From the NCBI GenBank assembly GCA_020723365.1, contig DYJB01000005.1, forward strand, positions 1 through 42,990: a DNA stretch of 42,990 nucleotides, in the 5' to 3' direction. A program made the position numbers and the translations under genes. The notes under the pieces are model-generated. The model ran no database searches. It was not told the DNA's origin and saw only the letters and a list, made by a program, of their open reading frames with translations. Position 1 is the first letter of the stretch. Each line of letters opens with the position of its first letter. This stretch comes from Candidatus Aquidulcis sp. (GTDB lineage: Bacteria; Chloroflexota; Anaerolineae; Anaerolineales; E44-bin32). This document shows positions 13,545-16,097 of this stretch, one piece after another.

Positions 13545-13629
13545 CGGAGGGAGAGGGATTCGAACCCCCGGTGGGTTGCCCCACAGCTGTTTTCAAGACA
13601 GCCGCCTTAGACCACTCGGCCATCCCTCC
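13545..13629 (-). tRNA. tRNA-Ser, anticodon UGA (class II)
   Basis: The reverse complement is GGAGGGA TG GCC GAGTGGTCTAA GGC G GCTGT CTTGAAA ACAGC, followed by a variable arm, GGGGG TTCGAAT CCCTC, TCCCTCC and G. Confidence 0.9.
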
Positions 13630-13685
13630 GGGCGCGAGGGCTCCCCGACCTTCGCGTCGCATTCTACCATGTGCTCCGGGGGGTG

Positions 13686-14429
13686 TCAAAGTTGGCGCCC
13701 CGAGGCTCCCTCCAAACCGCCGTCGGGGGACCACACGGCATACAGCCCGAGGCGCCCGCCCTGTCCGTCGGACTCGAAGCGTTCGATCCAGCGGAACCCC
13801 GTTTGCCGCGCCAGGGCCTCGAGCTCGCCGGATTCGAAGGCGTGAAGGTAGCGCAGGCCGCGGCCGCCGTGACGCCAGTCGATGAGGTAGTCGCCGGCGT
13901 CCACCTGGGACGGATCGAGCCCCACCGACGCCCAGGGCACGATGCGCCGGGTCAGACGCTCGCTGTGCAGGAACTGCCACACGGAGAAGGCGAAGAAGCC
14001 TTGCGGCGCCAGGACGGAGCGCACGCCGGCCAGGAAGCCGCGGCGTGCTGGTCCCGGCAGGTGGTGCAGAACGGCGAAGGCCAGCGCCCAGTCGCAGGGC
14101 GGCCGGACGGAGGCGGTCCATGCTGGATCGGCCAGGTCGGCCGAGGCGAACTTGGCCTGCGGCAGCCCGGCCGTCCGCGCCTGCTCGAGCAGCGGGGCGC
14201 ACTCGTCCAGCCCCAGGTAGTCGCCCCGATGACCGCGCCGATGCAGGGCCCGGGCGACCTCGCCCGACCCGCAGCCCAGGTCGACGACGGAGGCCTGGCG
14301 CGGGAGGCGTTCGAGCATCGCCGCCGCGCCCGGCTGAAGGCGCCGCCGGGTGGCGGCGAAGGGGGCGGCGAAGGACTGATAGAATTCGCGGTTGATGCGC
14401 CGCAGGCGATCGGCAACGTCCGGCTGCAT
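13686..14429 (-). CDS. class I SAM-dependent methyltransferase, Trm9/ALKBH8-like by motif pattern
   Basis: 248 aa from ATG at 14429 (MQPDVADRLRRINREFYQSFAAPFAATRRRLQPG...). Has the SAM motif VVDLGCGSG and a C-terminal RYLHAFESGELEALARQTGF. The N-terminal F..FA.PF..TR....P block aligns by eye with the Trm9 Y..IA.HFS.TR...WP block. The longer ORF-track version is an antisense extension over elp3. Confidence 0.75.
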   Translation of the reverse strand: MQPDVADRLRRINREFYQSFAAPFAATRRRLQPGAAAMLERLPRQASVVDLGCGSGEVARALHRRGHRGDYLGLDECAPLLEQARTAGLPQAKFASADLADPAWTASVRPPCDWALAFAVLHHLPGPARRGFLAGVRSVLAPQGFFAFSVWQFLHSERLTRRIVPWASVGLDPSQVDAGDYLIDWRHGGRGLRYLHAFESGELEALARQTGFRWIERFESDGQGGRLGLYAVWSPDGGLEGASGRQL

Positions 14430-14447
14430 GGCCGAAGTATACGACCC

Positions 14448-16097
14448 ATGGATGGCGACCTGAACTGGCTGGAGGCGCGCCGCACCTCGCCCGAGATGCT
14501 CGCTCGCGCGCGCCAGATCCTGGAGGCGGTACGCGACGGGGCGGAGGTCACTGCTGCCGTGCGCGGGCACCCGCTGGCGGATGGACGGCTGCTGGGTAAA
14601 CACGTGCTCGTGCGTGCCTATCTGCAGCTGACCGGCGAGGGAGACTGGCCCGCCGATCCGGAGCTGCTGCGGCGCATCCGCATGAAGCCGGTGCGCACGC
14701 TCTCGGGCGTGACGACCGTCACCGTGCTGACCGAGCCGGCCGGCTGCCCGGGCGATTGCCTCTTCTGCCCGACCGTCGAGCACATGCCGAAGTCCTATCT
14801 TCCGGACGAACCCGGGGCGCGGCGGGCCGTGCAGAACGGCTTCGATCCCTACGCCCAAACCGCCTCGCGCCTGGAAGCCCTGCGGGCCATCGGCCATCCG
14901 ACCGACAAGGTCGAACTGCTGATCCTGGGCGGGACGTGGAGCGCCTACCCGTCGCCCTACCAGGAGTGGTTCGTACGGCGCTGCCTGGAGGCGCTCAACG
15001 GCTCCGAGGCCCACTCCCTGGCGGAGGCGCAGCAGGCGAATGCCGGGGCATGGCATCGTAACGTCGGTCTGGTGGTCGAGACTCGCCCGGACTGGGTCAC
15101 GCCGGAAGAAGTGCGCCGCTTGCGCTGTCTGGGTGTGACCAAGGTGCAAATCGGCGTGCAGAGCCTCGACGATCGCATCCTGGCGCTCAACCGCCGCGGG
15201 CACACGGTGGCCGAGACGCGCGCGGCGATGCGCCTGCTCAGGGCGGCCGGATTCAAGATCGTCGCCCACTGGATGCCGAACCTGCTCGGGGCCACGCTCG
15301 ACTCGGATCGCCAGGACTTCGCCCGACTGTGGGACGACGCCGACCTGCGTCCGGACGAGATCAAGATCTATCCGTGCCAACTGCTGCCGGGTACCGGTTT
15401 GGAGCAGGCCTGGAGGCGCGGCGAGTACCAGCCCTACACGACCGCCGAGCTGGTGGCGCTGCTCGCCGACGTCAAGCCCGGCATCCCGCGCTACTGCCGG
15501 GTCAACCGTGTCGTGCGCGACATCCCGTCGCAGCACGTGCTCGAGGGGAACCGGCGCACCAGCCTGAGGCTGGACGTCCAGGCGGAGCTCCGCCGGCGCG
15601 GGCAGGCTTGCGCCTGCATCCGCTGCCGGGAGGTGCGCGCTCGGCTCGTGGCGCCAGGCGAGCTGGCACTCGGCGATCTGGTCTACGAAGCCGGTGGTGC
15701 GCTGGAGCACTTCCTGTCCTACTCGGACGCTGATGATGGGCTGGCCGGCTACCTGCGGCTATCGCTGCCGGGCGCAGGTTCCCCGGACACCGGGCTTGAC
15801 GATCTGCAAGGCGCGGCGCTGGTGCGCGAGGTACACGTCTACGGCGAATCGCTGGTCCTTGGCGCGGAGTCCAACGGGGCGGCGCAGCATGCCGGGTTGG
15901 GGCGCAGGCTGATGGCCGAGGCGGAGGCCCGCGCCGCGGCGCAGGGGTTCAGCCAGGTAGCCGTGATCGCCGCGCTCGGGACGCGCCGCTACTATGAGCG
16001 CCTCGGCTACCAGCTCGGGGGAACCTACATGGTCAAGGACCTTCCCGATGGCTCGCCGCGTGAAGAGGGCCTCAGCCCGGAGAGTGGACCGGTATGA
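14448..16097 (+). CDS. elp3: Elp3-type radical SAM/GNAT enzyme (tRNA uridine-34 carboxymethylation family)
   Basis: From ATG 14448 (alternative ATG 14496). Has the radical-SAM cluster motif CPGDCLFCP and the Elp3 core (GVTKVQIGVQSLDDRIL.LN.RGHTV, KIVAHWMPNL). The C-terminal GNAT/KAT block is LVREVHVYGE...QH.GLGRRLM.EAE..A...G......VIAALGTR.YYE.LGY...G.YMVK. The N-terminal 259 codons of the ORF-track frame were discarded. Confidence 0.88.
   Translation: MDGDLNWLEARRTSPEMLARARQILEAVRDGAEVTAAVRGHPLADGRLLGKHVLVRAYLQLTGEGDWPADPELLRRIRMKPVRTLSGVTTVTVLTEPAGCPGDCLFCPTVEHMPKSYLPDEPGARRAVQNGFDPYAQTASRLEALRAIGHPTDKVELLILGGTWSAYPSPYQEWFVRRCLEALNGSEAHSLAEAQQANAGAWHRNVGLVVETRPDWVTPEEVRRLRCLGVTKVQIGVQSLDDRILALNRRGHTVAETRAAMRLLRAAGFKIVAHWMPNLLGATLDSDRQDFARLWDDADLRPDEIKIYPCQLLPGTGLEQAWRRGEYQPYTTAELVALLADVKPGIPRYCRVNRVVRDIPSQHVLEGNRRTSLRLDVQAELRRRGQACACIRCREVRARLVAPGELALGDLVYEAGGALEHFLSYSDADDGLAGYLRLSLPGAGSPDTGLDDLQGAALVREVHVYGESLVLGAESNGAAQHAGLGRRLMAEAEARAAAQGFSQVAVIAALGTRRYYERLGYQLGGTYMVKDLPDGSPREEGLSPESGPV

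Follow-up and report, generated by a model that had tools for sequence, protein, structure and literature searches.

Can a bacterium modify the wobble uridine (U34) of its tRNAs with an enzyme pair of the archaeal and eukaryotic type? Textbooks and reviews assign the xm5U34 modifications of bacteria to MnmE/MnmG and the Elp3/Trm9 route, which yields 5-methoxycarbonylmethyluridine (mcm5U) and its 2-thiolated form (mcm5s2U), to eukaryotes and some archaea. The question is raised by a 42,990-nt stretch of DNA from Candidatus Aquidulcis sp. (Chloroflexota; Anaerolineae; Anaerolineales; contig DYJB01000005.1, positions 1 to 42,990), hereafter the window, which belongs to an assembly of 2.96 Mb in 323 contigs (GCA_020723365.1, 94% complete). 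Here, an elp3 gene and a gene for a Trm9-like methyltransferase lie head to head, and the original prediction, made from the letters of the window alone, was that such a pair would imply an (m)cm5U34-type pathway; the computational tests described below support this idea. We consider it likely (probability about 0.72) that the two genes form an archaeal/eukaryotic-type wobble-uridine module, composed of Elp3 and a diverged Trm9, that leads to mcm5U34 and replaces MnmE/MnmG in this bacterium; the organism would probably make an mcm5U-type tRNA modification. The module comprises:

13686..14429, minus strand: Trm9-like class I S-adenosylmethionine (SAM)-dependent methyltransferase of the Anaerolineae type (P0001), 247 amino acids (aa), from the open reading frame and its translation.
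14448..16097, plus strand: Elp3 (P0002), 549 aa, with radical-SAM and KAT/GNAT domains, a predicted tRNA U34 carboxymethylase (TIGR01211, PDB 5l7j).
14430..14447: spacer separating the start codons of the two divergent genes, from the sequence.

The spacer is exactly 18 bp long, as had been stated, and all the sequence strings cited in the original prediction were found in the two proteins.

The full Elp3 architecture that had been claimed for the plus-strand gene was borne out. The protein scored 479.9 bits against the NCBIfam ELP3 model TIGR01211 (cut-off 350, E 8e-144), with residues 73-532 aligned to model positions 51-522, and it was matched by all Elp3 structures in the PDB (E 1e-84 to 2e-117), the best being that of Dehalococcoides mccartyi Elp3 (DmcElp3; 5l7j, 2e-117). 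By BLASTP it is 44% identical over 457 aa to a Dehalococcoides-type Elp3 of 459 aa (locus L092), whose residue numbers match the published DmcElp3 numbering. The predicted CPGDCLFCP cluster is present and gives the pattern CxxxCxxC (C100, C104, C107), the three zinc cysteines of the linker, a trait of prokaryotic Elp3, are kept (C388, C390, C393), and Pfam GNAT matches cover residues 478-522. Residues K154, K270, E461, H463, R486, and Y515 correspond to K77, K193, E386, H388, R411, and Y441 of DmcElp3, the roles of which, together with the zinc-cysteine feature, have been described (PMC6367351). Because the family score is accompanied by the conservation of all the cluster, zinc, and acetyl-CoA residues, we take the protein to be a bona fide and apparently functional Elp3. 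Its features are:

14745..14768, plus strand: radical-SAM [4Fe-4S] motif C100-x3-C104-x2-C107, aligned to the Dehalococcoides-type CPGKCIYC.
15885..15905, plus strand: acetyl-CoA motif of the KAT domain, Q480-H-A-G-L-G-R486, aligned to the Dehalococcoides-type QHRGLGR.
14448..14684, plus strand: N-terminal extension of ~79 aa (the BLASTP alignment to L092 starts at residue 80 and that to TIGR01211 at residue 73).

This extension is absent from DmcElp3 and lies outside TIGR01211, and it is conserved in the Elp3 of Anaerolineae, as the tblastn alignments of related loci begin at query residues 1-7. In contrast to the archaeal N-terminus (PMC6367351), the Anaerolineae extension has no marked basic character.

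The neighborhood of the two genes proved to be conserved. A locus scan in which each species was represented by a single genome yielded 80 loci with the methyltransferase family, nearly all from metagenome-assembled genomes of Anaerolineae, and Elp3 was found directly upstream on the opposite strand in 74 of them (74/76 of those with enough upstream DNA); among the six exceptions, four had < 740 bp of upstream DNA and two had 6 kb of upstream DNA lacking Elp3. In 13 loci (L021, L030, L033, L038, L040, L046, L048, L054, L056, L058, L061, L069, and L078) the pair is interrupted by a gene on the Elp3 strand, and both partners are retained. The gene in this gap of ~850 bp was considered as a third component and ruled out, being an ordinary cysH (~250 aa; NF002537, 254 bits). 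The phyletic distribution was assessed in 401 evenly chosen Chloroflexota genomes, in which family members were recognized by full-length matches at E ≤ 2e-42, everything else being partial and reaching at most 64 bits. The methyltransferase family was present in 42 of these genomes, all of which also encode Elp3 (Fisher p 2e-38, uncorrected for phylogeny); the two genes lie ≤ 4 kb apart on one contig in 32 genomes, and the remaining 10 retain both. Pairwise distances in one protein track those in the other (r = 0.78, a value reached by 0 of 999 Mantel permutations), with the methyltransferase evolving faster than Elp3 (mean p-distance 0.47 vs. 0.33). The pairing is beyond chance. Two loci with an Anaerolineae-type pair, L041 and L072, lie in bins that carry the labels Nitrosomonadaceae and Saprospiraceae, and are probably mis-binned contigs rather than cases of transfer.

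Elp3 was encoded by 70 of the 401 Chloroflexota genomes, i.e., by all 35 sampled members of the order to which the window belongs, five further members of its class, and 30 genomes from outside that class, most of these being small (1-2 Mb) and Dehalococcoidia-like; the view that bacterial Elp3 is merely sporadic, which the original prediction had adopted, does not fit these numbers. MnmG was present in 170 genomes and co-occurred with Elp3 in none (Fisher p 2e-19, uncorrected for phylogeny). Within the class of the window, two genomes had MnmG without Elp3 and five had Elp3 without MnmG. Such mutual exclusion is the pattern predicted by a functional replacement at U34. Neither Elp3 nor MnmG was present in 161 of the 401 genomes. 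In the 94%-complete assembly carrying the window, MnmE, MnmG, and CmoB were all absent: MnmE models matched GTPase domains only, and the best MnmG match (59 bits) fell in a frame of 452 aa, probably a TrmFO-like one. MnmA is present (317 bits vs. a cut-off of 237). The U34 tRNAs of the assembly are those for Gln-UUG, Glu-UUC, Gly-UCC, Leu-UAA, Leu-UAG, Arg-UCG, Pro-UGG, Ser-UGA, Val-UAC, and Sec-UCA, and tRNA-Lys(UUU) was not found among the 37 tRNAs predicted by ARAGORN. ARAGORN also listed a tRNA-Tyr with anticodon ATA alongside the tRNA-Sec(UCA).

The identity of the methyltransferase was approached through family models, fold, and residue comparison. Its Pfam matches are limited to generic class I methyltransferase domains, and the top NCBIfam/Pfam matches are weak (trans-aconitate methyltransferase and BioC; 40 bits in NCBIfam vs. 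a cut-off of 297). No NCBIfam model came near its cut-off, and the protein grouped with none of the named families of small-molecule methyltransferases. A large protein collection held 1557 relatives at E ≤ 1e-5. The close ones are named 'class I SAM-dependent methyltransferase' by NCBI, other public records read 'protein of unknown function', and many family members are named 'tRNA (uracil-5-)-methyltransferase TRM9' by the Joint Genome Institute (JGI) pipeline. An alignment of 30 family members that are 51-90% identical to the protein of the window (alignment A1) contains 44 invariant columns, and the AlphaFold2 (AF2) model built on it has a predicted local distance difference test (pLDDT) score of 93. 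When this model was compared with the PDB by Foldseek, Trm9 of Yarrowia lipolytica ranked first (5cm2_Z, E 3e-13). Comparison of A1 with Trm9 of Saccharomyces cerevisiae by hhalign gave a probability of 97.9% (E 4.7e-13) over 204 columns, a stretch that begins in the N-terminal helix and ends in the last strand, with ~28% identity over the aligned columns, and a hidden Markov model (HMM) alignment to the actual 5cm2 sequence paired 'SATRRRLQPGV' with 'ANTRYKPWPIV' and 'AVLHHLPG' with 'AVIHHFST'.

A second type of Trm9-like methyltransferase emerged when the Elp3 neighborhood was examined in six small genomes without the A1 family. In five of these six Dehalococcoidia (the D. mccartyi type among them), a divergent Trm9-like methyltransferase of ~220 aa adjoins Elp3 (alignment A2). 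Its relatives include annotated D. mccartyi and Dehalogenimonas proteins, often named TRM9 by JGI. Since the A2 gene lies beside Elp3 and has relatives in D. mccartyi, the organism whose Elp3 was crystallized has a Trm9-like neighbor of its own. By hhalign, A2 matches Trm9 better than A1 does (98.9%, E 1.4e-17) and matches A1 with a probability of 99.4%. Of the two, the Anaerolineae type represents the more derived branch of a single Elp3-Trm9-like module.

The joint alignment of A1, A2, and Trm9 was read against the mutations that kill Trm9, namely those at R29, D72, H116, W145, W168, R241, Y243, and N271 (PMC4678810). R28 (Trm9 R29), D75 (which follows strand 2 and corresponds to Trm9 D72), the His122-His123 pair, W151 (Trm9 W145), and R193 (Trm9 R241) are invariant across all three, and DLGCGSG (motif I) is invariant in the methyltransferase; all these residue columns except H115 are essential in the Trm9 mutagenesis (PMC4678810), where R29 was proposed to hold the carboxylate and H116 to be its partner in a catalytic dyad. 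For W168, which is exposed to solvent on the first strand of the Trm9 hairpin, there are two conserved candidates, W166 (by hhalign to Trm9) and W185 (aligned to the Dehalococcoidia 'VPW'). The corresponding elements are:

14328..14384, minus strand: N-terminal helix motif FYQSFAAPFAATRRRLQPG, residues 16-34, with invariant Y17, F24, R28, R30, and P33.
14061..14066, minus strand: His122-His123 pair, equivalent to Trm9 H115/H116, invariant in A1, A2, and Trm9.
13842..13877, minus strand: beta-hairpin W185-RHGGRG-L-R193-Y194-L195-H196, equivalent to Trm9 'VPW...RYYH' (AF2 strands 180-184 and 192-196; hhalign).

The helix FYQSFAAPFAATRRRLQPG aligns to both the Y. lipolytica and the S. cerevisiae Trm9 and fits the pattern Y..(I/F)A..F..TR...P, with Y17, F24, T27, R28, and P33 conserved. 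In the hairpin, which includes the start of the C-terminal motif RYLHAFESGELE (residues 193-204), R193 and H196 do not vary, and Y194 is conserved in ≥ 90% of the family. The Dehalococcoidia type keeps 'RYYH', a Tyr/Phe at the Y243 position, and an invariant C-terminal Asn in an 'RNIC' motif. We read the methyltransferase as a true but diverged Trm9 homologue, in which the carboxylate-holding dyad would be kept and the uridine-reading part remodelled; it is best described as a putative bacterial subfamily of Trm9-like enzymes, so far without a name, that is linked to Elp3. The fit to the Trm9/ALKBH8 pattern that had been noticed by eye stands in part: fold rank, the 204-column alignment, and the catalytic residues in register agree with it, but residues equivalent to Y243 and N271 are missing.

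In the pathway we propose, Elp3, acting alone without Elp1/2/4-6, would use its radical-SAM and acetyl-CoA sites to place a carboxymethyl group onto C5 of U34, giving 5-carboxymethyluridine (cm5U34), a step suggested by family membership and the intact catalytic residues. The methyltransferase would then transfer the methyl group of SAM to the carboxylate of cm5U34 to form mcm5U34, with R28, H123, and R193 holding the carboxylate against the SAM methyl; here homology, the conserved catalytic residues, and the strict genomic coupling point in the same direction. As MnmA is present, it could add s2 on the Glu-, Gln-, and probably Lys-tRNAs (mcm5s2U34). On the basis of the phyletic pattern, the module would take the place of the MnmE/MnmG (c)mnm5U pathway in Anaerolineae and Dehalococcoidia.

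Several points weigh against this reading. By scores alone, Trm9 cannot be told apart from the remaining class I methyltransferases: METTL6, CcbJ, DhpI, and others lie within a factor of ten of 5cm2_Z in the Foldseek search, which makes the lead of Trm9 trivial, and in the sequence-profile search of the PDB Trm9 came only fifth. Single-sequence and profile searches both placed Trm9 amid generic methyltransferases, and the PDB score rank was dropped as a family discriminator; with the Rossmann core removed, residues 145-238 of the methyltransferase gave no significant match to PDB sequences. Since the scores left the family undecided, the residue register in the alignment was taken as favoring Trm9. 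For the S. cerevisiae Trm9 sequence used in it, the check comprised the 14 residue numbers that PMC4678810 prints, and all of them agree. The position of Trm9 Y243 is occupied by Val/Leu195 in the Anaerolineae type. N271, proposed to read O2/N3 of the uracil, has no counterpart, as the invariant G222 comes directly after D221 and no Asn precedes strand 228-235. An extra insertion of ~20 residues is found at about residues 155-178. The Fisher tests cited above carry no correction for shared ancestry. With regard to Elp3, DmcElp3 was weakly active and showed reduced tRNA binding in vitro (PMC7663514), and the same 2020 review names Dehalococcoides alone as having Elp3 and reports no direct evidence of xcm5U in any bacterium.

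The last of these points concerns Trm112, which is required by the Trm9 of eukaryotes and of Haloferax volcanii (PMC4678810, PMC6144793). The 94%-complete assembly contains no PF03966 match, and tblastn with five Trm112/YcaR-like proteins of relatives (72-75 aa) found no match in it either. A Trm112/YcaR-like gene of this length, with the consensus MVxxELLEILRCPxC...CGRKYPIxDDIPVMLIxEGDKW...LPVPPP (L100-L108), is present in 47/61 genomes of the order, in none of which it adjoins the methyltransferase-Elp3 pair, and the function of the bacterial Trm112/YcaR homologue is unknown according to PMC5372719. The presence of a Trm112-like partner, raised by the original prediction, is thus answered in the negative for this assembly and in the affirmative, without linkage, for most of the order. 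The claim that the methyltransferase works without Trm112 was dropped because most relatives in the order encode such a protein.

The explanation that competes best with an mcm5U34 module is that the methyltransferase acts with Elp3 on tRNA at a step other than that of Trm9, e.g., on another derivative of the Elp3 product, on a cm5s2U or ribose-methylated substrate, or at a neighboring position of the anticodon loop, and that its product is not mcm5U. We regard this as unlikely, although the coupling to Elp3 is equally strong evidence for it, and the loss of the uridine-positioning Y243 and N271 in the Anaerolineae type, the insertion at ~155-178, and an invariant polar set of the family's own (N13, Q18, R162, D180, D184, and R186) speak in its favor. 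The residues that would hold the carboxylate and face SAM (R28, H122/H123, and R193) are nevertheless invariant, and because A2 retains Y243 and the Asn and aligns to A1 at 99.4%, one reaction shared by the two types can be argued. In a related proposal, which we find similarly doubtful, the Anaerolineae enzyme makes or requires an uncatalogued U34 derivative (e.g., a substrate restricted to the 2-thiolated base, or a product other than the simple ester), alone or with the Trm112/YcaR homologue, as Asn271 and Tyr243 were lost while an invariant polar pocket and an insertion of its own were gained; if this were true, split codon boxes would be read in two whole Chloroflexota classes by means of a wobble chemistry not known from bacteria.

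Quite improbable, in our judgement, is that bacterial Elp3 does not carboxymethylate U34 in vivo but acts on another RNA or substrate, or is nearly inactive, with the pair serving some other joint role. The weak in vitro behavior of DmcElp3 and the lack of detected bacterial xcm5U (PMC7663514) would agree with it, but the full set of catalytic residues is conserved, DmcElp3 hydrolyzes acetyl-CoA specifically in response to tRNA (PMC6367351), the mutual exclusion with MnmG is perfect, and the Anaerolineae Elp3 has a longer N-terminus that DmcElp3 lacks. That the Trm9-like protein is in fact an unrelated methyltransferase of small molecules or proteins, lying beside Elp3 by lineage synteny only, is very improbable, for even though its Pfam/NCBIfam matches are generic (weakly topped by trans-aconitate methyltransferase and BioC) and all compared loci come from one phylum, in which synteny could be inherited, no named family approaches its cut-off, the family was never seen without Elp3 (42/42, the 10 unlinked genomes included), a second, distinct Trm9-like subfamily holds the same position beside Elp3 in Dehalococcoidia, and both genes persist in the 13 loci with an intervening cysH.

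The putative mcm5U34 module can be compared with three known systems. Like Trm9-Trm112 of fungi (S. cerevisiae; Y. lipolytica, 5CM2), ALKBH8/TRMT112 of animals, and Trm9 (HVO_1032)-Trm112 of H. volcanii, the methyltransferase has a class I fold and an N-terminal helix with the catalytic Arg; like Trm9, it has a His-His pair after strand 4, a Trp after strand 5, and an RYxH beta-hairpin, and is predicted to work downstream of Elp3. It differs from Trm9 in its bacterial host, in the change of Y243 to Val/Leu, in the missing N271 counterpart, in the insertion, in an invariant DWRxGG turn of the Anaerolineae type, in its low identity (~28%), and in that no Trm112 gene occurs in this assembly or linked to the pair in relatives. 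Like DmcElp3 (PDB 5L7J, 5L7L, and 6IA6), the Elp3 of the window stands alone, belongs to the same phylum (44% identity), has the same cluster, zinc, and acetyl-CoA residues, and has a divergent Trm9-like neighbor; unlike DmcElp3, it carries the N-terminal extension of ~79 aa and is partnered by a separate, more diverged subfamily (A1 vs. A2). With MnmE/MnmG, which together with MnmC or MnmM lead to (c)mnm5(s2)U34, the module would share the position, presumably the same split-box tRNAs, and thiolation by MnmA, whereas the chemistry differs (enzymes using flavin adenine dinucleotide, folate, and GTP vs. radical SAM and acetyl-CoA) and the two systems are exclusive across the 401 Chloroflexota genomes.

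In archaea, clustering of the Elp3 and Trm9 genes in Sulfolobus solfataricus has been cited, and mcm5U together with Trm9-Trm112 was demonstrated in H. volcanii (both in PMC6144793 and PMC5372719). For bacteria, a 2017 review stated that genes resembling Trm112-dependent methyltransferases are not detectable (PMC5372719). A 2026 paper mentions that 'numerous bacteria' keep Elp3. A literature search brought up no publication that describes a bacterial Trm9 or the replacement of MnmG by Elp3, in agreement with the original prediction, to which no characterized two-gene module of this kind in a bacterium was known. The distribution reported here shows Elp3 fixed in whole Chloroflexota orders (35/35 sampled genomes in that of the window), always excluding MnmG and travelling with a Trm9-like partner in two subfamilies. 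It would offer a clean natural example in which one wobble-modification system has been exchanged for another, and possibly a Trm112-independent Trm9 for mechanistic work. Whether bacteria make mcm5(s2)U34 can now be tested directly in D. mccartyi, the source of an already crystallized Elp3.

As for transcription of the pair, a promoter scan found no sigma-70-like site in the 18-bp spacer, and the promoters of the two genes, if any, must be located within the adjoining coding sequences. Elsewhere in the window, a second class I methyltransferase-like frame (26877-27182, minus strand) gave a weak CmoB-like match of 30 bits, far under the cut-off, and is probably an unrelated methyltransferase. 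The region past the stop codon of the Trm9-like gene contains:

13661-13689, minus strand: near-consensus sigma-70-type promoter TTGACA-17-TAGAAT with an upstream TG (11/12 matches), overlapping the methyltransferase stop and facing tRNA-Ser(UGA).
13543-13629, minus strand: tRNA-Ser(UGA), 56 bp past the methyltransferase stop codon (ARAGORN).
13387-13481: tRNA-Ser(GCU), next after tRNA-Ser(UGA) (ARAGORN).
13283-13359, minus strand: tRNA-Arg(GCG) (ARAGORN).

The original prediction had noted the U34 tRNA-Ser(UGA) directly downstream of the methyltransferase, and the start it gave for the feature (13545) falls 2 nt within this tRNA. The position was correct, but it carries no functional signal: only 3/77 informative related loci have a tRNA gene within 600 bp of the methyltransferase on its downstream side. 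Because of this rarity and of the near-consensus promoter of its own, the position of tRNA-Ser(UGA) is regarded as incidental, its membership was ruled out, and it stands outside the module. The three-tRNA cluster is probably an independent unit driven by its own promoter, and its tRNA-Arg has the anticodon GCG (G34), not the usual bacterial ACG/ICG.

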